64,000 bases of DNA from an uncultured delta proteobacterium (lineage in GTDB: Bacteria; Myxococcota_A; Polyangia; Fen-1088): positions 64,001-128,000 of the forward strand of contig CAWCMR010000014.1 in NCBI GenBank assembly GCA_963796685.1. The letters run 5' to 3'. The notes beneath the pieces are model-generated. The model was not told where the DNA came from and did no database searches. It was given only the letters and a program-made list of their open reading frames with translations. A program made the translations under genes and the position numbers. Of the stretch, positions 1 to 46,000 are shown piece by piece; within the stretch, counting starts at the first letter, position 1, and the number at the start of each line of letters is the position of its first letter.

Positions 1-1013
1 AGCATGACCGACGAGAGACCGGCGATGGCGCCGATCTCGACGGCGGACTCCAAGAGGTGCGAACCGGTCACCGCGATGCCGACGGCGATGGGGTTGGGGA
101 CGGATAACCTGGTGTAGTGGACGACTCCGGTCAGGATGAGCGAGACGGCGATGTAGAGAACCGTGCAGATGGCCAGCGATCCAAGGATGCCGATGGGCAG
201 GTCGCGCTGGGGGTTCTTGGTCTCCTGGGCGGCGGTCGAGACGGCGTCGAAGCCGATATACGCAAAGAACACCATGGTCGCACCTTGCAGGATGCCGGAA
301 ACACCGAACCGGCCGAAGGTGCCCTCGTTGGGCGGCACGAAGGGGACCCAGTTCGCGTGGCGGACGAAGGGCGCGGCGGCGACGATGAACATCAGCACGA
401 CCGCGACTTTGACCAGCACGATGATGCCGTTGAAGCGGGCCGACTCCTTGATTCCCACCACCAGGATGGTGGTCACCGCCAACACGATGAGCACAGCGGG
501 CAGGTTGATGATGGCCCCGGTACCGTGCAGGTGGTGCGTGGCCTCGTCCCAGATGAAGGGCGCGCGAGTCCACGTCGCCGGCAGCTCGTGGCCGGTCACG
601 TTCTTCACGAACGCACAGACGTAGCCCGACCAGCCCACGCTCACGGTGGCGGCGCCCACGAGGTATTCGAGAATCAAGTCCCAGCCGATGATCCAGGCGA
701 CAAGCTCGCCCATGGTGGCGTAGGCGTAGGTGTACGCGCTGCCGGCGATGGGTATCATGGATGCCATCTCGGCGTAGCACAGGCCCGCGAAGGCGGAGGC
801 CACGGCGGCTACCGAGAACGAGAGCGCCACGGCTGGCCCGGCGTTGGCGGCGGCGGCGCGGCCGGTGAGCACGAAGATGCCGGTGCCGATGATCCCCCCC
901 ACGCCGAGCAGGACGAGGTCGAAGGCGGTGAGGCTGCGCTTGAGCCCGTAGCCGTACTCCGCGTCCGAGCGCAACTTGTCCACGGACTTGGTCAAGAAGA
1001 GTGGGTTACCCAT
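1..1013 (-). CDS. APC-family amino acid permease (3' end outside window)
   Basis: Manual translation from ATG 1013: MGNPLFLTKSVDKLR...LKRSLTAFDLVLLGVGGIIGTGIFVLTG..AGPAVALSF, with GSAYTYAY and later FFAYIGFDAVSTAAQE motifs. Overlaps the stop of the upstream gene. Confidence 0.93.
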   Translation of the reverse strand, partial: MGNPLFLTKSVDKLRSDAEYGYGLKRSLTAFDLVLLGVGGIIGTGIFVLTGRAAAANAGPAVALSFSVAAVASAFAGLCYAEMASMIPIAGSAYTYAYATMGELVAWIIGWDLILEYLVGAATVSVGWSGYVCAFVKNVTGHELPATWTRAPFIWDEATHHLHGTGAIINLPAVLIVLAVTTILVVGIKESARFNGIIVLVKVAVVLMFIVAAAPFVRHANWVPFVPPNEGTFGRFGVSGILQGATMVFFAYIGFDAVSTAAQETKNPQRDLPIGILGSLAICTVLYIAVSLILTGVVHYTRLSVPNPIAVGIAVTGSHLLESAVEIGAIAGLSSVM

Positions 1014-2001
1014 GCGAGTTCATGCTTTCTCCGTGTGCTCCATCTCGTCCGTGCTCTCTCCTCTCGGAGGCGAGCATGGCCAGCGCGCTGTAGGTCGCCA
1101 CCGCGATCACCAGCCACAGAAGATATCCGACGGAGAGCTGGCGGACCACGTAGGCCGCCAGCAACACGCCTGGAATGCCCCCCAGGGCCAGGCCGAGGGC
1201 CGCGCGCGAGGCGTAGCTGCCGCGGCCGATGAAGCGAATCCCGCTGGTCGGCATGATGAATGCGCAAGACCCCATCATGATGGGGAAGATGGCCTTGAGA
1301 TCCATGCCGAGAAATCCGAACAGGATGAGGCTCGGTGCGTAGGCGCCGATGCCGAGGTTCATGAGCGCCCCGAAGGTGAAGTTACCCAAGAGGCCGGCGG
1401 CCATGCGCCAACCGTGCAGGCCCAGGGTTTCGCCGCCGCTGGGCAACCAATGCACGGCCTTGGCCAACATCAGACCCGCCGCGCCCAGCAGGGCGAGTCC
1501 CATGCCAATCTGGACCTTGCGTTTAGACCACGCCGAAACCACCCCGGCGCCCAGCCACGAGCCCAGGATCGAAGCCGCGATGAGCGCCACCAACGAAGGC
1601 ATTTCCACCTGGATGATGGTGATGGAGATGACCGCCTGTGCGACAGTCGGCCACATGTGCCCCACCAGCAGCGTACCGGGGATGCGGCGATCGGGAACCA
1701 TGTGGAACAGTTTGTAGATCGACGTGGTGGTGGCGTAGGAGCCGATGCCCAGGAAGTCGAAGAAATTCGTGATGAATCCAATGACGGCCTGGGCTGCCGA
1801 CGGTGGGCCGGGACGCGTGGCCGACGCGTCCTCGTCATCGTTCGACGCGGACCGGGGCTCGTCCCGCGTCCCAGCATTGCGCGCCGTCCGAAGGCGTTTC
1901 TTCGCAATATCGCGGCTCCACAGCGCGGTGAAGGCGACTCCGAACCCACCGAGCGCGATGAGCAGCAAGGATCTGGGACCCAACATTTGCGCATGGTACA
2001 C
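1006..2001 (-). CDS. TauE/SafE (TSUP) family sulfite exporter-like membrane protein
   Basis: Multi-TM protein with internally repeated GFITNFFDFLGIGSYA / GALMNLGIGAYAP motifs. ATG 1986 is an alternative start. Confidence 0.8.
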   Translation of the reverse strand: MYHAQMLGPRSLLLIALGGFGVAFTALWSRDIAKKRLRTARNAGTRDEPRSASNDDEDASATRPGPPSAAQAVIGFITNFFDFLGIGSYATTTSIYKLFHMVPDRRIPGTLLVGHMWPTVAQAVISITIIQVEMPSLVALIAASILGSWLGAGVVSAWSKRKVQIGMGLALLGAAGLMLAKAVHWLPSGGETLGLHGWRMAAGLLGNFTFGALMNLGIGAYAPSLILFGFLGMDLKAIFPIMMGSCAFIMPTSGIRFIGRGSYASRAALGLALGGIPGVLLAAYVVRQLSVGYLLWLVIAVATYSALAMLASERREHGRDGAHGESMNSHG

Positions 2002-2137
2002 CGAGCCTTGTCGTGTGGGGAGACGGGCTGGCTTGTTCCTTTGCCCGCGGCCTGTGCCGGCGGCGACTCAAGTTATGACGGCCCTTCCGCCGATGCTGTC
2101 TTGGTTGGGATTGGCTGCCCATGGGTCAAAGTGCAAC

Positions 2138-3328
2138 GTGACGGGGATTGAACACGGCGAGACCGAGGACTTGAGCCCTGCTCTTGGGGGTGGTCGTTCC
2201 GCGATCCTGGTCGTCGATGACGACGAGGAGTTCATGCGCGCGTGCGTTCGCGTCCTGGAGGCTTGGGGCTATCTGGTGTCGCGGGCAACGTCGAGCGAAG
2301 CCGCACTGGAGATGGCGGGCGAGCGCTCCTTCGACGCGATCCTCACCGACATCAATCTGCCCGGGTCGAGCGGTCTCGATGTCCTGCGCGTCGTGCGCAG
2401 CCGCGACAAGGACGTTCCGGTCATTCTGATGACCGGAGGACCCGAGCTCGAAACCGCGCGGTTGGCGGTGGAATGGGGCGCCCAAAGCTATCTCATCAAG
2501 CCGCTCGCCATGCCGCAGCTCAAGGAAGTCCTGGAACGAACCATCCGCGCCTACCACCTGGCGCGACGGCAGCGGCAGATTCTGGCGGTCAGCGATCGCT
2601 TGGCGCGTGAGACCGAGGCGCTGCGCGATCAGTTCGGCCGTACCCTCGATGGCCTGTGGATGGCCTTTCAACCCATCGTCTCCTGGTCGCAGAAGACTGT
2701 GGTCGCGTACGAGGCGCTCATGCGCAGCACCGATCCCACGCTGCACCTGCCCATCGACATCCTCAATGTCGCCGAATCGCTGGGAGAAGTTCACACCCTT
2801 GGACACAAGACGCGCGGCCTCATCGCCGAGGTGCTGGAGAACCATCGTGATTTGCCGGGCGTCTTCATCAACCTTCACGTCCTGGACCTCTTGGACGAGC
2901 AACTCTACGCGCCGGACAGCTCGCTGCGACCGTTCGCCTCGCGCATCCATTTCGAGATCACCGAGCGCATGGCCATCGAAAAGATCCCTGACACGCACGA
3001 TCGCATCGAGCGTCTGCGCAAGCTCGGCTACAAGATCGCCGTCGACGATCTGGGCGAAGGCTATTCCGGCCTGAACAGTTTCGCGGACTTGGAGCCGGAC
3101 GCCGTCAAGCTCGACATGTCCTTGATTCGAGGCATCGATCGCGCGCCGACCAAACGCCGGATGGTCCATGCCCTGGCCACCTTGTGCCGCGAGCTTGGTA
3201 CGCCGCTGGTGGCCGAAGGCGTGGAAACCCAAGCCGAGCTCGATATTTTGATCGATCTGGGAGCGGATTGGCTGCAGGGCTACCTGTTCGCCCGTCCCGA
3301 CTACCCGTTCCCGGTGCCGCGGATGTAG
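2138..3328 (+). CDS. Response regulator with EAL c-di-GMP phosphodiesterase domain (REC-EAL)
   Basis: ILVVDDD...TDINLPG..G receiver domain, then FQPIV, YEALMR, FEITE, VDDLGEGYS, VKLD, AEGVET and QGYLF motifs. Start uncertain (GTG 2138 or TTG 2171). Confidence 0.92.
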   Translation: MTGIEHGETEDLSPALGGGRSAILVVDDDEEFMRACVRVLEAWGYLVSRATSSEAALEMAGERSFDAILTDINLPGSSGLDVLRVVRSRDKDVPVILMTGGPELETARLAVEWGAQSYLIKPLAMPQLKEVLERTIRAYHLARRQRQILAVSDRLARETEALRDQFGRTLDGLWMAFQPIVSWSQKTVVAYEALMRSTDPTLHLPIDILNVAESLGEVHTLGHKTRGLIAEVLENHRDLPGVFINLHVLDLLDEQLYAPDSSLRPFASRIHFEITERMAIEKIPDTHDRIERLRKLGYKIAVDDLGEGYSGLNSFADLEPDAVKLDMSLIRGIDRAPTKRRMVHALATLCRELGTPLVAEGVETQAELDILIDLGADWLQGYLFARPDYPFPVPRM

Positions 3329-3461
3329 GCTGAATTCCGTGTGATTCGGGCGGCGAACTGGGCCGTCTCGCGGGGCGAGAATTGTGTTGCGCCCCACGAA
3401 CAGGAGACGTAAGAACAGGTCGCTTTCTTTCCCCAAAAGCACTTCACGGAGGACCCACGAA

Positions 3462-39204: not shown

Positions 39205-40660
39205 CATAGGTAGGATCTTAATTCCTCAATGAAATCGATCACTTACTGAACGGATGTTCAAGGTAGTTGCAGAAGACACAGGAATCCTCCTACACATTCG
39301 TTTGCGAAGACAAACGCGAGGAGGTTCCCTGTGCCCAAGAGAGACATTGCCACAATCGAGGCGGAGACACTCAGCCAAAAGCTACAGCAGGTTCTCAGCG
39401 ATGCCGAGGTGGAGAAGGTGGCTCGCCGGTGTGGCTTTCTTCGACGGCGCCGTGAAATCGCCCCGGCCGCGCTTCTTATAGCCTGCATCTCGGCATTGGG
39501 GGCAGGCACGGCTGCGTGGCTCGCGGACATCCTGCGCGCCTTCAACGCGTTCACCGGCAAGGCTGTTCGCTACAAGCCTTTCCACAACCAACTGAGCAAA
39601 CGGCGATTCCCCATCTTCATGCACGCCATTCTCGAACAGGCGCTCGCGAAGCTGACGGCACCTGTGCTTGAGAGTTTGCCCAAGGGCAAGCTGGCTCAGT
39701 TCTCGGAGATCCTGTGCCATGACGGCACCTCGTTTGCGCTCAAAGACACTCTGGCCAGAAAGTGGCCCGGCCGCTTCACGAAGGTGACCCCAGCGGCAGT
39801 GGAGCTCCACGTAACCATGAGCGTCTTGAGGGACAATCCCGTCGCCATTACGCTGGCCCCTGACAAGGAAAGCGAACGCCCATTCGCCCCCAAAGCGGCG
39901 TCTCTCAAAAATCGCCTGGTCCTCGAGGACCGTGGATTCGAGGATCGCGTTGTCTTTGCAGACACTCTCGACGCCGGAGGATTCTTCATCGTTCGCGGCA
40001 AAAAGAACAGCCGACCAATCATCCGAAGTGCTCGCGACAAGAATGGCAGGCGTATCCCTCGTCTCGAGGGCAAGCGACTCAAGTGGCGTGTACTGCCTCG
40101 TCATACGGTCGACCTAGAAATCGAGTGGAAGATCAACGCCCGCAGGACCTACTGTGGTCGTCTCGTTGCCATCTACATCGAAGGAAAACGCAACAAGAAG
40201 GGCTACACCTATCTGCACACGAATCTGTCGAGAGCGACCTTCACCGCTCACGAAGTAGGCAGAGTCTACAGACTCAGATGGCAGATTCAGCTCCTCTTCA
40301 AGGAATGGAAGTCCTACGCAAATCTCCACAAATTCGACACGGCCAAGTCACCCATCGCCGAGGGCCTGATCTGGGCAAGCCTGCTTGCCGCGACCATCAA
40401 ACGAGCGCTCACCCACGCCGCAGAACACGCATGCGGTATTCCACTGTCCACCCAGCGCGCAGCCTGCTCTGCCAAGCATTTCCTCGACGCGATCCTGCTA
40501 TCCATCCTCGAATCTGCCGCGCAGCTCCTGTCGCATATCCGTTCTGCCTTCACTTTCCTCGCGGAAAACGCACCTCGTGCGCATCCCAAACGCGATCAGG
40601 GAATGGGGCGCCTTGCGATGGGATTACGCCATTCCGCCACCGCTTAAGTACCTACCTATG
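39205..40660 (+). mobile_element. IS4-family insertion sequence (1456 bp)
   Basis: 17-bp IRs CATAGGTAGGATCTTAA / TTAAGTACCTACCTATG. 10-bp TSD AGGCCGTTCT at 39195-39204 and 40661-40670. Confidence 0.93.
39331..40647 (+). CDS. IS4-family DDE transposase
   Basis: HDGTSF, EDRGF, YRLRWQIQLLFKEWKS (YREK-like motif, with Q where the catalytic E is normally found). Confidence 0.92.
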   Translation: MPKRDIATIEAETLSQKLQQVLSDAEVEKVARRCGFLRRRREIAPAALLIACISALGAGTAAWLADILRAFNAFTGKAVRYKPFHNQLSKRRFPIFMHAILEQALAKLTAPVLESLPKGKLAQFSEILCHDGTSFALKDTLARKWPGRFTKVTPAAVELHVTMSVLRDNPVAITLAPDKESERPFAPKAASLKNRLVLEDRGFEDRVVFADTLDAGGFFIVRGKKNSRPIIRSARDKNGRRIPRLEGKRLKWRVLPRHTVDLEIEWKINARRTYCGRLVAIYIEGKRNKKGYTYLHTNLSRATFTAHEVGRVYRLRWQIQLLFKEWKSYANLHKFDTAKSPIAEGLIWASLLAATIKRALTHAAEHACGIPLSTQRAACSAKHFLDAILLSILESAAQLLSHIRSAFTFLAENAPRAHPKRDQGMGRLAMGLRHSATA

Positions 40661-40785: not shown

Positions 40786-41305
40786 TCAACGGACGGAAGT
40801 GGGCGCGGCCGAGCGAAGCTCCTTGAGGTCGTCTCTGGCCTGTTCGAGACCCCGAGCAAGCAGCCGGGCTCTGTGGCCGGAAGGCCCCTCGCAGAGGTTC
40901 TTCGTGATCCAGAAGATCACGCTCTGAACGAGGGTGACGGGATCTCGGTCCACGGCGTGTGCCAGGTCGCCGCATGGAAGCTGGTAGCGATCGGCGATGC
41001 GGCTGAGGGCCTTGCCGACCCGCAAACCCGTCCGGCGCATGACGAAGAGGCCCAGGGCAATTGTCGTCCCGGCTTGCTTGAGGCGCGTCTGCAGCTCTTG
41101 GTCGATCACGGACGGCAGGGGGTGCGGCAGATAGTCCGGCTTTTGGGGCAGATCGCGGGACAGGATGAGCGCGCGCCCCGGAGCCGCGATCAAGCTGTGT
41201 TCCCACAGCCAGTCGAGATAGGTACGGAGGTTGACCAGCCAGCAAAACCGAGTGGTCGGATGGAGGCCACGCTCGTGCAGCTCTTGGCTCCAGGTAAGGC
41301 ACACG
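40786..41305 (-). pseudogene. Tyrosine recombinase remnant (continues at 44705-44800)
   Basis: LRTYLDWL..LPHPL..RRTGLRVG with the downstream catalytic region deleted. Reads through in frame when the 41306-44704 element is removed. Confidence 0.75.
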
Positions 41306-41482
41306 TGTTGTTTCTCACGTAGTTCCACCGCCTGCTTCTCACGGATGTTCGTGATGGGCGGGACGCCATTTCCCAGATTGGGAGGCGCGTTGATTGGCGC
41401 AGGGGCGGTGGCGTAAAGCCAAAGCCCCGACGCCGATGAGATCGGTGCCGGGGCCTTTGGTGATGGGACGGGTGGCGACGTG

Positions 41483-41794
41483 TCAGAAGTTCAAGTAGTC
41501 GCCTTCTGGCTCTGGGTTGAGGGCAAGCTGTCGGTAGTCTTTGATGGCGGCACGGAGGTCGTGGATACGGACGCACAGGTGGTTGGCCTTGCACGCCTCG
41601 GGGGATGGCAGGTCGCCTCGTGCGAGGGACTCAAGGTCGAGGTCTGGATGCTCGGCCATGAGCTGGTAGGCGGCCGTGGCCAAGGTGGCGTCGAGCGCGG
41701 CAAGGACGCCGAGCTCGGGTGCGATTGCCAGTTCGTTCGGGGTGGGCCGCAGGAGCGGCTGGTTGTGCTCGGGCAGCCAGGTCGCGGTCATCAT
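41483..41794 (-). CDS. Small helical accessory protein of the transposon
   Basis: ATGA overlap with the ATPase stop and GAGG RBS. MMTATWLPEH..PELGVLAALDATL..DYLNF. Confidence 0.65.
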   Translation of the reverse strand: MMTATWLPEHNQPLLRPTPNELAIAPELGVLAALDATLATAAYQLMAEHPDLDLESLARGDLPSPEACKANHLCVRIHDLRAAIKDYRQLALNPEPEGDYLNF

Positions 41795-42588
41795 GACACC
41801 TCTGCGAGCGTGGCCTGCACGTGCTCGGCGGTCACCACCTTGGCGCGAGCCAGGGCAGCGGCGAGGAGCGCGTGATGGGCGAGCAAGTTCACCTTGCGTG
41901 GCAGGCCCTGGGTTGCCTGGAACACGGCTTCGACGGCGGCGGGTTCCAGCAGTGGCAACTCGGTGCCGGCCAGGCGCAGGAGGTGCACGAGGTACGGTCC
42001 GATTTCGTCGCGGCCGAGGCCGGCCACGTGGTAGCGGACCACGATTCGCTGCGAGAGCGCCTCGTAGGCCGCCATGCCCAGCCGCCGGCGTAACTCGGCC
42101 TGGCCGACGAGCAGCAGGCAGAGCCTGTTCTCTGCGTCCATCTGGTAGTTGGTGAGCAGGCGCAGATCCTCGAGCACCTCGGAGCGCAGGTTGTGGGCTT
42201 CGTCGACGATGAGGATGGGGCGGCAGCGGGCCTCGGCACACAGGCGGGTGACCTCGTTCTTGATCTGGCGGTAGAGCGCGGCCCGGCTGCGCTCGGTAGG
42301 CAAGCCCATCTCCCAGGCGATGGTTTTGTACAAATCCATCACATTGCCGGTGGAGAGCGAGACGTAGACGACGCGGTACAGACCGGCGTGCAGAGCAGTC
42401 ACGACTTTGCGACAGGCGCAGGTTTTGCCGCTGCCACTCTCGCCGGTGACCAGGCCGATGCCACGCATCTCGATGAGATGGCCCAGGCGGGCCTCCAGCT
42501 CTTTGCCGGCGGCTGATACAAAGAGGTCGTTGGGCTCGATCTCTTTTCCGAAGGGGTGGCGGGTGAGGCCGAAATGCTTGCGGTACAT
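41791..42588 (-). CDS. ExeA-like AAA+ ATPase (transposition helper)
   Basis: MYRKHFGL..PF, GESGSGKT, LIVDEAH, LLVGQ, ALSQRI, GLPRKVN. Confidence 0.92.
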   Translation of the reverse strand: MYRKHFGLTRHPFGKEIEPNDLFVSAAGKELEARLGHLIEMRGIGLVTGESGSGKTCACRKVVTALHAGLYRVVYVSLSTGNVMDLYKTIAWEMGLPTERSRAALYRQIKNEVTRLCAEARCRPILIVDEAHNLRSEVLEDLRLLTNYQMDAENRLCLLLVGQAELRRRLGMAAYEALSQRIVVRYHVAGLGRDEIGPYLVHLLRLAGTELPLLEPAAVEAVFQATQGLPRKVNLLAHHALLAAALARAKVVTAEHVQATLAEVS

Positions 42589-43800
42589 CAGCGACCTCCT
42601 TGCTTGGCTTCATCACCGTCGAAGTCGCGCAGGCGCAAGCCCGCGGGCGGCGTCTCGGGCGCGCGCGCTGGCTGCAGCGTCTTGCTGGCGTGGTCGCGCT
42701 TGACGAAGCAATTGGCGTAGGCGTCGACGGGCTTGGCCATGCCGACCTTGCGTCCGACGTGCCAGACCTCGACCTTGCGCTCGGGGCGCGTGGGGTCGAA
42801 GCGCAGCGTGACGGTTTGCCCGACGAGGATGGCATCGACTTCGTAGACGCCGCCGCGCAGGCTCACCGTTCGGTCGCGCGCGACCTTGCGTTTCTCCTCG
42901 AAGAGAAAGAGTGCGGCCAGATCGAGCCCCGGCTCGGGCAGGCGGACCTCGTCGCAGACCTGGGCCCAGCGATCGAGCGGCGTCTCGCCATCGAGACCCT
43001 TGTGCGGCCGGTGGTGATATTCACCTTCAACCCAAGCCCACAGGCGCCGATTGAGCGCCTCCAGGCTGGCGGTGTCCTTGGCGCCGAGCAGCGGGAGAAA
43101 CTGCATGCGTACCGTCCTGAAGAAACGCTCAATTTTTCCGCGTCCCTGCGGCACGTACGGCCGACTGTGGATCAGCGTGATGCCGAGCTTGGCGCGGTAC
43201 CACCCTCGTCGCGTCGTCGATGAAGGCGATGAGATACGTCTTGTGCCGTCGCTTCCCCTCGACGGTTACCGACACCGCGTGCATCACGTCACTCATCCAC
43301 AGCTCGTTCGCCTTCTCGAAGGCGAAGTGCCGCCGATCTTTGCTCGTCGGATCCTCGGGGCGCTTTTCCATCAGCCCCCGCCGCGACAGCAGGCGGTGGA
43401 CCGTCGCTGGCGCCAATTCCAGATCGGCTGGCACCTCGCCCGAGGCGCGTGCGGCATCGATCACCATCCGTACCGACAATTCCTGCTTGTCCTCCTTGAG
43501 CATGCACAGAAGGTCGGACACCTTCTGCGGGATCGCCCGTGCCTGCCCCTGATCCGCGCGCGGCTGCGGGCGCAGAGCCTCGAAACCGCCCTTGCGCCAC
43601 TCGCGTAACCAGCCGCGCATGGTCTCGGCCGCCACGCGGGTGCGGCGCGTCCCTGGGATCGCGTAGCTTTTCGACGCTTTGTCCTTGAGCCGGGCGTACG
43701 TCCCCGCTTCGCCCGGTTCCATGTGGGTCAGATCGGCAATCAATCCGTAGCGGAAGAGCGCCACATCCTCACGTCGGTCGGTCGTTGCTTCGGTCTTCAT
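42588..43800 (-). pseudogene. DDE integrase/Mu-type transposase with internal deletion
   Basis: HTH N-terminus, LWMSDVMH..IDDATR, junction near 43195, then LIHSRPYVPQGRGKIERFF and a Mu-C-like tail. Confidence 0.88.
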
Positions 43801-43843
43801 CGTTTTCCTCCTCGGACCCCGTGCTTGGGGTCGCCCCAGACCA

Positions 43844-44473
43844 CTACCGGCTTGTGCGCGGCGGGTCCGGCCCCGTTCCCTGTTGGCTGCGCCTTCGCTT
43901 TCGCCACCGCCGCTTTGGCCGTGGCCCGAATCCGAAAGGAGGCGCCAGCGTCCCCAGATGCGCCGCCCCGATCTCCCGCAGCCGCATCAGCGCATGCTCC
44001 GTCCCGAGCACCTTGCGCACCGACCCCAGTCGAGGCTCGTTTCCGAGCCGCCCAGGCATCAGCGTCACCAGGGCCAGCAACGCCATCCGCACCGCCCCCA
44101 GCCGCCGCCGTACCCAGCGCACGGCCCCGGGCAGCTCGATGTCTGGCCGAATCCTTTCCGCCGCTTTCTCGATGCTCTCACCTGCCGCCACCTTGGCCTC
44201 CACGATGGCCACTACCTGCTCGACCTCGTCGAGACTTCCAGGTAGCCGACTCGCCAGGCAGTCCGGCAAAAGGCTGAAGGTGGTGTGTCCCGTCGGACAA
44301 TACCAGCGGGCGATCCGCATCCCGGCTGGCTCGACACGTGCGTACGTCCCGTGCCGCTCGAGATCGCAGTCCCCGCGAGGATGCAGCGGACATCGATCCA
44401 GCCTTGCCTCTTGCCAGCCCTTTTGCCTAACGTAGTCCTCGCTGGTGAGCGCCGTTCCCTGGCGCAGTTGCAC
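43844..44473 (-). CDS. Zn-finger/HTH-like accessory protein (DUF6431-like) of the transposon
   Basis: CPLH..C..HGTYAR..RWYCP..TFSLLPDCL. First gene of the element. Confidence 0.7.
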   Translation of the reverse strand: MQLRQGTALTSEDYVRQKGWQEARLDRCPLHPRGDCDLERHGTYARVEPAGMRIARWYCPTGHTTFSLLPDCLASRLPGSLDEVEQVVAIVEAKVAAGESIEKAAERIRPDIELPGAVRWVRRRLGAVRMALLALVTLMPGRLGNEPRLGSVRKVLGTEHALMRLREIGAAHLGTLAPPFGFGPRPKRRWRKRRRSQQGTGPDPPRTSR

Positions 44474-44950
44474 CGGCCACTGGCCCGCACGGCTCCAACC
44501 GTGGCGGGACTCTATTCTTGTCTATGGGTGTTCTTGCGGACGGGCACCATGCCCATCACCGGCCCCAGATTCACCCAACTTGCCCATCCCGCAAAGCCCC
44601 CACGCAACCCTGTCTCGAATTCTGCCCCCATCTCAGGCGAACCAACGCTGGCCCACTCCGCGATGCAACCGCCGGTGGATCACGAGACTACGTGAGAGCC
44701 AACAACACGGAACGATCGAGGTTTGCGATGGCGGTGTGCTGGTCATCAAGCCAGCGGTGGAACCGGCGCAAGACGAAACGATAACCTTGATTTGCTCGTA
44801 AAAACCCCGGTTTTCAGAAAGCCTGTCCGGTGGTGCTCTCGTGGAATTTTGGGTGCCCCGGCGTGGATCGAATGTGATCGTCCGGATAGGGTTCGCGCTA
44901 TTCTATGCTTCGGCGCATTCTTGACACGGATTTCGGCCGCAAAGCCGCAG

Positions 44951-46000
44951 TCAGCAGGCGCAGGTCGGAGTTGGATCGACGGCGGCGGCCACAGCTTGGG
45001 CCAGGTGGCCCACGTAGCGTTTGACGTTCAGGGCGAGCACCTTGAGGTGCACCGCCAGGGTGACCCGTGGTCGGCCTCGCACGCGCAGCTCGGCGAAGCC
45101 ATGGCATCGCTTCAACTCCGAGTTCGTGGCCTCGATGCCAGACCGGATCTTGTGCTGCTCCTTGAACTCCGGCGTTACCTGCTCCTGGCGTCGCTGCGCG
45201 ATTGCCACGTCGACGATTCGAAACGCGAAGACGAGCCGGTCACCACGACGCTGGACCGGACACTTGTCGCGAAGCGGGCAGCCATCGCAGCACTCGGCCG
45301 AGAAGATGGCCAGCCTGGTCAGCTTGCCAGGCTGCTCGTGCGCCATCGGCGCTTGCCCCATCGGACAGGTTAGCACCGTCGTCCGCGTCTGGTCGAAGTC
45401 GAAGTCACCGATGTTCGCGGTCTCTTCTGATCTGATGGTCCCTTCGACCCGATCGGCGCTCGCAGATCCGTCCCGCGCTCTTCGGCCCCGACGATGTTCT
45501 CGCCGCCCGCGTAGCCTGCGTCGGCGTATCGCGTTTCAGGCGTCGCCCCGCACGTCCGCGCCACCTGGTCGAGGACCGGCGACCGGCAGCACGTGCTGTT
45601 GGTCGCTCTCGTTGGCACCGTTCACGCTCACCGCGGTCACCACCTCGAACGGGTTGTTCTCGCCGCATGTCTCGACCAGCTGGGCCTCGTAGCCCTTGCC
45701 CTTGTAGCCATACGTCACGTCGGAGTCCGACGGGCTCTGCAGCGACGACGAGGACGGCTTCTCCTGCAGCTCGATCTGGACCGGCGCCTCCGTCGTCGGC
45801 GGTACGCACTGGTCGCGGTAGAGCCGCTGCAACAGAGCGAACGCTTCCATGCCCGAAACGGAGCGATGGTCTGATGCACGCGTAAATGCACCTCGCCAGC
45901 GACGGGACAACGGTGTCAAGGCTCGCGAAGCGACGGCCGAAGGCCGCTTGGCCTTGTCACCGTCGTCCGGCGCTGGCACCAAGAAATCGAAGGCATTCAA
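44951..46000 (-). pseudogene. IS1182-like transposase remnant
   Basis: Three frames: LQSPSDSDVTY..KGYEAQLVETC; ADAGY; CCDGCPLRDKC..RSGIEATNSELKR..LRVRG. N-terminus absent. Confidence 0.8.

Follow-up and report, generated by a model that had tools for sequence, protein, structure and literature searches.

What kind of mobile element occupies positions 41306-44704 of a 64,000-nucleotide stretch of DNA from an uncultured delta proteobacterium (contig CAWCMR010000014.1 of assembly GCA_963796685.1; the whole stretch is called the window below), and does it represent a transposon class of its own? A preliminary description made from the sequence had proposed a four-gene transposon of a poorly described class. 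The element is read here, with a probability of about 0.85, as one inactivated transposon of the Tn6049 group, ~3.54 kb in its intact form, which carries four genes on the minus strand and would move by the Mu-like mechanism set out below. The four genes are a Cys-rich open reading frame (ORF1), a DDE transposase, an AAA+ ATPase, and a small last gene (ORF4).

The ends of the element are defined by the following features.

41301-41305, strand not applicable: target-site duplication ACACG, copy 1 (read from the sequence)
41306-41323, plus strand: terminal inverted repeat of the ORF4-side end, starting with TGT (inverted-pair listing and alignment ends of independent copies)
41338-41355, plus strand: inward-pointing subterminal repeat CTCACG-N5-TCGTGAT (motif search)
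44679-44696, minus strand: the CTCACG-N5-TCGTGAT motif inside the ORF1-side end (motif search)
44687-44704, plus strand: terminal inverted repeat of the ORF1-side end, ending with ACA (inverted-pair listing and alignment ends of independent copies)
44705-44709, strand not applicable: target-site duplication ACACG, copy 2 (read from the sequence)

From 41306 onward the sequence reads TGTTGTTTCTCACGTAGT, to which the stretch finishing at 44704 is imperfectly complementary; 16 of the 18 bases of the terminal inverted repeats are complementary (89%, repeat finder). Relatives of ORF1 were sought in species-representative genomes, which gave an initial set of nine loci. BLASTN alignments of the element with the copies L003, L004, L005, and L006 (87-92% identity) span element bases 1-3399 and go no further, the flanks being unrelated. 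Because independent copies in other genomes share identical end bases, the element boundaries are solid. Hence, the bounded transposon of the preliminary description, with its TGT/ACA ends, 18-bp imperfect inverted repeat, and 5-bp ACACG duplication, is borne out by these same-ended copies.

Duplications were counted in the 13 full-length copies with both flanks, that is, 12 loci and the window. A perfect 5-bp duplication is found in six of them (the window, L003, L004, L005, L008, and L055), all of which lie on contigs of at least 12 kb. Three copies in one metagenome-assembled genome are flanked by CTCCT, GCCGC, and CCCCC, L008 by TAGGT, and L055 by CCAGG; five relatives of the window copy thus show a duplication at the equivalent position, each differing from ACACG, and six mapped insertion sites show six different duplications. 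The frames hit at these sites are the recombinase remnant described below, an IS200-type-transposase-like frame and TPR-like repeats (both judged by eye), and three others. No pattern is seen among the six mapped sites, and they show no bias toward integrase genes of the kind suggested.

The motif CTCACG-N5-TCGTGAT has just two matches in the 64-kb window, both in the element ends (0.11 expected by chance). At the ORF1-side end it is located 9-26 nt from the tip, and at the ORF4-side end TCTCACGTAGT occupies the tip and the motif is located 33-50 nt inward. The subterminal repeat at 41338-41355 is likely a second, putative transposase-binding site, and the arrangement suggests one candidate site on the ORF1 side and two on the ORF4 side, as in Mu-type ends. 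A 16-nt inverted similarity (88%) between 41322-41337 and 44748-44763 was considered as a second end and rejected; its outer arm lies in the host frame (..FHRWL..), 40 bp outside the element, and it is probably due to chance.

An intact element measures 3538 bp (L003, 5770-9307) and contains all four genes, with a DDE transposase of 450 aa. Stop and start codons overlap among the last three genes, by 1 nt between the DDE and ATPase genes and by 4 nt between the ATPase gene and ORF4. The window copy contains the following genes and gene pieces.

43844-44473, minus strand: ORF1, 209 aa, Cys-rich, with an N-terminal three-stranded ribbon and a helical domain; probably divergent DUF6431-type (homologues, profiles, model)
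43129-43800, minus strand: N-terminal piece of the DDE transposase pseudogene with helix-turn-helix (HTH) domains and the first catalytic Asp (ORF list, Pfam, alignment)
42588-43154, minus strand: C-terminal piece of the DDE transposase pseudogene with the catalytic Glu region and the Mu-transposase C-terminal domain (ORF list, Pfam, alignment)
41791-42588, minus strand: AAA+ ATPase, 265 aa, intact (GESGSGKT; LIVDEAH) (Pfam, PDB, BLASTP)
41483-41794, minus strand: ORF4, 103 aa, a helical hairpin and a disordered acidic tail ending ..GDYLNF (homologues, alignment, model)

The window copy is a dead copy of a real, correctly bounded transposon. Relative to four intact copies it has a 140-bp deletion between 43195 and 43196; the missing stretch encodes, in L003, ..FAAFALAEN...LYVDNGAVYRSHHLELVC.., including the second Asp of the DDE triad. 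Because the deletion shifts the DDE frame and removes this catalytic residue, the element is unable to move by itself. The three remaining genes are full-length and encode 209 aa (ORF1), 265 aa (ATPase), and 103 aa (ORF4). The designation as a four-gene transposon hence applies to intact copies, and for the window it overlooked the split DDE gene. Within the source genome it amounts to an inert scar amid a cluster of insertion sequence (IS) remnants; no second copy of its subfamily was found in the 7.3 Mb on 26 contigs that were searched (88.6% complete), and the search for further copies proposed earlier yielded only a solitary 32-nt end relic at C25:1655047-1655078 (L002), 91% identical to the ORF1-side end. 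The relic is devoid of the last four bases of the end, and no element adjoins it.

The intact DDE protein matches the Pfam domains HTH_32, rve (3.5e-12), rve_3, and Mu-transpos_C (1.7e-7). Among PDB entries TnsB is its best match (1e-8), next to retroviral integrases and IS21 IstA. The best NCBIfam model is IS481 (NF033577) with 205.5 bits, under the cut-off of 224, and the IS21 model reaches 44 bits against a cut-off of 160. The ATPase matches Pfam AAA_22 (2.5e-26) and, at 2.3e-4 and 21.1 bits, TniB, for which the cut-off is 22.4; IstB is not listed among its domain matches, and its sole PDB match is MuB (8xvb, 6.6e-5). No TnsA, TniQ, or resolvase domain is found in any element ORF with Pfam and NCBIfam. 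The DDE-ATPase pair is kept together across Proteobacteria, Bacillota, and Actinomycetota. Both the proposed pairing of a DDE transposase with an AAA+ protein and the statement that the element is neither IS21 nor a TniQ-bearing Tn7 therefore stand.

A transposon of this organization is already known. According to PMC2864759, Cupriavidus metallidurans CH34 harbors 12 copies of the 3.5-kb transposon Tn6049, all with the ATPase gene gspA, and PMC6210171 states that its transposition module "could not be categorized". Two further papers report recombinase-in-trio (RIT) elements inserted in the transposase gene of Tn6049-related transposons of Acidithiobacillus (PMC3414803) and, for the Tn6049 copy of pHS87a, 12-bp repeats and a 4-bp duplication (PMC4739549). 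The RefSeq annotation of Tn6049 on pMOL28 and on the Pseudomonas aeruginosa plasmid pHS87a shows four co-oriented genes for proteins of 181, 479, 277, and 71-90 aa, and the pMOL28 copy has TGT..ACA ends and the 5-bp duplication TATGG. In BLASTP, 26% of residues are identical between the DDE proteins across 436-437 aa (E 5e-29 to 2e-31) and likewise 26% between the ATPases across 211 aa (E 2e-16). Because Tn6049 is an already described type whose gene set and gene order match those of the window element, the view of an undescribed class does not hold; the window element is a member of the already named Tn6049 group, not a new class.

The group comprises further subfamilies, among them intermediate ones. 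The element on pBB2 of Cupriavidus necator N-1 encodes, in the same order, a DUF6431 protein, a DDE protein (39% identity), an ATPase (34-35%), and a 65-aa ORF. The elements of Geobacillus pGeo12a and A. caldus each have a DUF6431 gene before the DDE gene, and the first gene of a Rhodococcus element (213 aa) matches DUF6431 at E 3.6e-5. RefSeq labels the transposases of Tn6049 and of the Geobacillus element "IS481 family transposase". The source genome itself contains a second Tn6049-like subfamily of ~3.5 kb, element B, in two copies that are 99.2% identical (C9:91974-95462 and C25:1191948-1195447). The DDE and ATPase of element B share 32% identity with those of the window type, its Cys-rich first gene encodes 210 aa, and its 74-aa last gene product ends ..HDDCF; at neither copy is a matching duplication found. 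The C9 copy is located between repeats resembling a CRISPR array. At C25:1183991-1196332, fragments nearer to Tn6049 are present (first gene 42-43%, ATPase C terminus 65%, and DDE N terminus 62% identical), and one of the element B copies seems to lie nested between them.

ORF1 has no family in Pfam or NCBIfam by single-sequence search. One search gives 3491 homologues, most of which lie on contigs of roughly one element in length, and another gives 910 representative clusters. Among the conserved residues are C28-P29, C36, Y44, R46, C59, TxSxLP, and RWxRRR, and C28, C36, and C59 are the only cysteines conserved at 90% or more. The AlphaFold2 model, built with 47 sequences (pLDDT 91.9), consists of three N-terminal strands followed by a helical domain, so that the Zn-finger-like appearance noted for the first gene is borne out as far as Cys-rich and ribbon-like. 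ORF1 is classified, from profile comparisons, as a probable divergent DUF6431-type protein, because its family profile matches three DUF6431-annotated first genes in hhalign (97.6%, E 3.5e-12, 90 columns), 8 of 47 family members match PF20020 weakly (E≤0.05), and 27 of its 30 Atlas matches fall in clusters in which 15-57% of members carry DUF6431. Foldseek finds nothing in the PDB at E≤0.001 for the model; in VIA-align (wide), the best Z is 4.3, to small HTH domains over residues 73-164, which is too weak for a fold name. Judging by title and abstract, no related literature on DUF6431 was found. In the 638-aa representative P0197, the first 199 residues match ORF1 (47% identity); this may be an ORF1-transposase fusion or a read-through call.

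Homologues of ORF1 are also found in RIT elements. A tblastn search with ORF1 matched nine plasmid records, and the context was inspected in eight of them. On five plasmids (Marinobacter pMAQU02, R. leguminosarum, M. japonicum pMLa, and two of R. etli), the homologue is located immediately 5' of three overlapping, co-oriented tyrosine-recombinase genes. In five loci, inverted repeats of 33-38 bp flank the homologue and the trio in a unit of ~4.1 kb. These units, delimited by their inverted repeats, are as follows.

L012, 4875-8961: RIT unit with ORF1 homologue
L087, 4868-8992: RIT unit with ORF1 homologue
L088, 4866-8989: RIT unit with ORF1 homologue
L089, 4867-8989: RIT unit with ORF1 homologue
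L092, 4367-8489: RIT unit with ORF1 homologue

Herein, the homologue lies ~100 bp from the left inverted repeat, upstream of ritA, and is annotated in none of the five by RefSeq or PLSDB. In five of the plasmid loci searched by tblastn, no DDE or ATPase of the window type is found. Regarding the other records, the DNA 3' of the homologue in Cupriavidus sp. P-10 is similar to recombinase-trio regions, one recombinase gene follows it in P. atlantica, and in Sphingobium it is split by an IS21. The literature, in its accessible part, presents RITs as three-gene elements and does not mention a fourth gene inside the inverted repeats. The source genome has several complete trios with ritA, ritB, and ritC homologues in order on C10, C11, C12, and C25 (e.g., C25:681146-683957); no ORF1-type gene stands beside them, tblastn with the window ORF1 matching C14 only.

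Across a survey of 60 ORF1 loci (9 genomic and 51 metagenomic), the neighboring gene is a DDE gene in 39, a RIT recombinase gene in 11, and neither in 10, seven of which have less than 600 bp of contig remaining. In all 39 DDE-adjoining loci, ORF1 is open, occupies the same position inside the ends, and is 47-91% identical to that of the window; both accessory genes are kept inside the ends of homologous elements, as the preliminary description had asked. In a maximum-likelihood tree built from 31 transposon-borne and 9 RIT-borne ORF1 sequences (40 rows in all, short and near-end rows being excluded), all transposon-borne rows lie on one side of a branch with support of 99/94. Under midpoint rooting these nest among the RIT-borne rows; the root is not established.

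ORF4 has 114 homologues, in which the N-terminal 60 residues are strongly conserved. Neither ORF4 nor any of these falls in a Pfam family, and ORF4 has none in NCBIfam; an Atlas search gave a best score of 0.76 and no lead. In the model (pLDDT 80.8), a helical hairpin is followed by a tail of low confidence. Phe is the C-terminal residue in 92 of the 114 homologues, and in 89 of these 92 the preceding nine residues include at least two Asp or Glu. The termini follow [ILMV]PF in 40 and QLxLx[LF] in 39 (e.g., QLNLPF, QLHLPF, DDIPF), the window ORF4 ends ..EGDYLNF, and the single-stranded DNA-binding protein (SSB) of the source genome ends ..GDDDIPF. The last genes of other subfamilies end LDLPF (N-1), DNDF (Tn6049), DDCF (element B), and HPPF (A. 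caldus). In SSB, an acidic C terminus ending ..IPF serves as the docking site for other proteins, and QLxLF and QLxLxL are motifs that bind the beta clamp. Because the tail resembles either the SSB tail or a beta-clamp motif, ORF4 is, on sequence grounds, a candidate adaptor to the host replication machinery. A complex prediction of ORF4 with DnaN of the source genome scored 0.02 (mark 0.32), which is no evidence either way.

Together, these features outline how an intact element would move. The 450-aa transposase, in which HTH domains at the N terminus precede a DD(35)E core of IS481/integrase-like type and a Mu-transposase C-terminal domain, would bind the TGT-terminal repeats, nick the 3' ends, and join them to target phosphates 5 bp apart, giving rise to the 5-bp duplication, which itself is observed. 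The ATPase most likely acts in the manner of MuB, TnsC, or TniB, by homology: loaded with ATP on target DNA, it would pass the target to the transposase and activate it. ORF1, with its DUF6431-type ribbon and helical, HTH-like part, is probably a DNA-binding regulator or site selector. The free, acidic, Phe-terminated tail of the ORF4 hairpin would probably dock on SSB-tail-binding proteins or the beta clamp, and this docking would couple the strand-transfer product to host replication or repair. Overall, the predicted machine combines Mu/Tn552-like strand transfer with a directing MuB-like ATPase, a DUF6431-type DNA-binding helper, and a replisome-docking helper.

Other origins can be imagined for the same gene set. 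If the element were an IS481-family insertion sequence with passenger genes, the ATPase and the two small ORFs would have no part in transposition; the best NCBIfam model of the intact DDE protein (IS481, 205.5 bits), the RefSeq labels of the Tn6049 and Geobacillus transposases, and the TGT ends and short duplications, which fit IS481, agree with this. It is nevertheless very improbable: the score stays under the cut-off of 224, the DDE protein bears a Mu-transposase C-terminal domain, its gene overlaps that of the ATPase by 1 nt and the latter overlaps ORF4 by 4 nt, the DDE-ATPase pairing is kept in three phyla (Proteobacteria, Bacillota, and Actinomycetota), and the nearest solved relative of the ATPase is MuB. 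A derivation from a Tn7- or Tn5053/Tn402-type transposon through decay and loss of TnsA, TniQ, or resolvase is hardly credible, given that full-length copies in several genomes, with intact ends and duplications, hold exactly these four genes in 3.5 kb, that no TnsA, TniQ, or resolvase domain occurs in the element ORFs, and that TniB scores 21.1 bits against a cut-off of 22.4; what such a derivation has on its side are the 5-bp duplication, the TGT ends, TnsB as the best PDB match of the DDE protein, and the weak Pfam TniB match of the ATPase (2.3e-4).

A further alternative concerns ORF1 only, which would be a gene captured from a RIT element and kept as cargo or as a RIT repressor rather than as a working part of the transposon. 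The occurrence of its family inside the 33-38-bp RIT inverted repeats 5' of ritA and the tree, in which the 31 transposon-borne rows lie on one side of a branch (99/94) and nest among RIT rows under midpoint rooting, are compatible with such a capture. ORF1 is, however, open and equally placed inside the ends of 39 loci at 47-91% identity, a DUF6431 gene fills the same slot in other Tn6049-like subfamilies, and the root of the tree is not established, which makes this alternative very unlikely.

The reading as a Tn6049-group transposon with the mechanism above has several observations against it, and two of the lines of evidence for the insertion are weak when taken singly. Within the same 3.6 kb, the repeat finder reports 45 inverted pairs with a length of 12 nt or more, so that the terminal inverted repeat alone is not beyond chance. 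Seven of the 13 full-length copies are without a duplication; their contigs are 3.7-6.1 kb long, and these copies are probably repeat-collapsed, chimeric short-contig assemblies. Excising 41306-44709 by script rebuilds a 207-aa stop-to-stop frame (..IANLDRSV|CLTWSQELHERG..), yet in this GC-rich DNA four of the six frames run through the rebuilt junction without a stop for 100 aa or more, and the in-frame rejoining alone is therefore weak evidence. Compared singly with Pfam DUF6431 (PF20020), ORF1 gives no match at E≤10 in one search and 12.5 bits in another, vs a gathering cut-off of 26.6. Between ORF1 or ORF4 and the first or last gene of Tn6049 there is no BLASTP match, and hhalign gives 0.3% for ORF1 and 0.5% for ORF4; the ORF4 profile reaches 6% with the last gene of the N-1 element, and in both the N-1 and Tn6049 comparisons the tail alone aligns. 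Because no similarity is detectable, the tie of the two small genes to Tn6049 is one of position, size, and composition, and for ORF1 also of DUF6431 via intermediates; the mismatch is treated as subfamily divergence in a group that has no formal family definition. The acidic Phe tail is not universal: in a branch with a 75-77% identical ATPase (L044-L047, L053, and L055), an ORF4 of 107-109 aa ends ..VLPPA or ..GVHAD, and the last gene slot may have been exchanged there. The small ORF of the Geobacillus element differs from the ORF4 type, and no small last ORF is found in the Rhodococcus locus. Finally, roles beyond transposition with a 5-bp duplication are inferred from sequence.

With the Tn6049-group transposon as the preferred reading, a joint view of the two small proteins can be put forward tentatively, although it is rather doubtful: both could be portable adaptor modules. 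ORF1 would have moved between RIT and DDE/ATPase elements while doing the same job (recognition of ends or targets, or copy control), and ORF4 would mimic the SSB tail or a clamp-binding peptide, recruiting replication-restart or repair proteins to the strand-transfer intermediate. If so, recruitment by ORF4 could explain how a Mu-like transposon without resolvase or TnsA completes transposition, and an ORF1 common to DDE transposons and RITs would, if confirmed, offer a first way into RIT biology. Judging by the size of the ORF1 family, elements of the Tn6049 type are very common, and they break metagenome assemblies, as many contigs are about one element long; the accessible literature yielded no account of their mode of movement. 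As a minimal Mu/Tn7-like machine of only 3.5 kb, with two helpers still to be explained, such an element lends itself to studying how an AAA+ target-loading ATPase is steered and how strand-transfer products are handed over to the host.

The insertion site and its surroundings comprise the following features.

40786-41305, minus strand: tyrosine-recombinase remnant, the part of the interrupted host gene downstream of the insertion (frame rebuild and homologue in a related genome)
44710-44813, minus strand: upstream piece of the interrupted host gene, truncated upstream by a stop and an IS fragment (frame rebuild and Pfam)
39331-40647, plus strand: IS-type transposase, DDE_Tnp_1, 438 aa (Pfam)
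44951-45535, minus strand: transposase fragment, DDE_Tnp_1_6 (Pfam)

The 170-aa host-gene fragment has no Pfam match. In a genome of the same genus, a stretch 88% identical is part of a longer ORF that is uninterrupted across the insertion point (..NLDHSVCLAWSQELHERG..); this ORF has a phage-integrase SAM-like domain (E 8.5e-12) and is preceded by a complete tyrosine recombinase gene. Because this uninterrupted homologue has a phage-integrase SAM-like domain, the insertion target is a tyrosine-recombinase gene, and the window copy sits in the N-terminal part of this decayed gene, within a cluster of IS remnants. Two earlier statements are thereby confirmed, namely that the interrupted host ORF rejoins in frame (the 207-aa frame with its uninterrupted homologue) and that the element landed in another mobile element. 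The region of the recombinase remnant is a small graveyard of mobile elements amid ordinary chromosomal genes (aminotransferase, EGF-repeat protein, GH30, and SCO1/SenC).

Compared with other known systems, the element shares a DDE transposase with a Mu C-terminal domain, an AAA+ partner, TG..CA ends, and a 5-bp duplication with Mu (MuA/MuB), Tn552, and Tn5053/Tn402 (TniA/TniB), and MuB is the nearest solved relative of its ATPase. Tn552 is known to encode a transposase, an ATP-binding protein, and the BinL resolvase and to have a duplication of 6-7 bp. In contrast to these three systems, neither phage genes nor a resolvase, a res site, or TniQ are present in the window element, which instead has its own two small accessory proteins; with regard to Tn5053/Tn402 in particular, which is marked by TniQ, the serine resolvase TniR, and a res site, TniQ and resolvase domains are absent and the TniB score is below the cut-off. 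With Tn7 it has in common TnsB as the best PDB match of the DDE core, the 5-bp duplication, and TGT-starting ends with repeated sites, whereas TnsA, TniQ/TnsD, and TnsE are lacking and, at 3.5 kb, there is no cargo. IS21 consists of two genes, IstA and an IstB-type ATPase, whereas the window element has four genes and an AAA_22 ATPase, and scores below the cut-off of the IS21 model. IS481, a family of single-gene insertion sequences, provides the closest NCBIfam model of the catalytic core and has TGT-starting ends as well; it differs by the score under the cut-off, the additional Mu C-terminal domain of the window DDE protein, and three more conserved genes. RITs, whose movement depends on three tyrosine recombinases and in which a DDE protein and an ATPase are absent (none by tblastn in five loci), share with it the ORF1 family, placed in RITs between the left inverted repeat and ritA.

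Tn6049, itself described by sequence only, differs from the window element in that the core proteins are just 26% identical, the terminal sequences are different, and the window copy is dead. Both elements measure ~3.5 kb and have, on one strand and in the same order, a Cys-rich ORF, a DDE transposase, an AAA_22 ATPase ("gspA", GspA/ExeA-like), and a small acidic ORF ending in Phe. Their DDE and ATPase proteins are homologous, both have TGT..ACA ends and a 5-bp duplication, and in both TCGTGAT begins 19-20 nt from one terminus.

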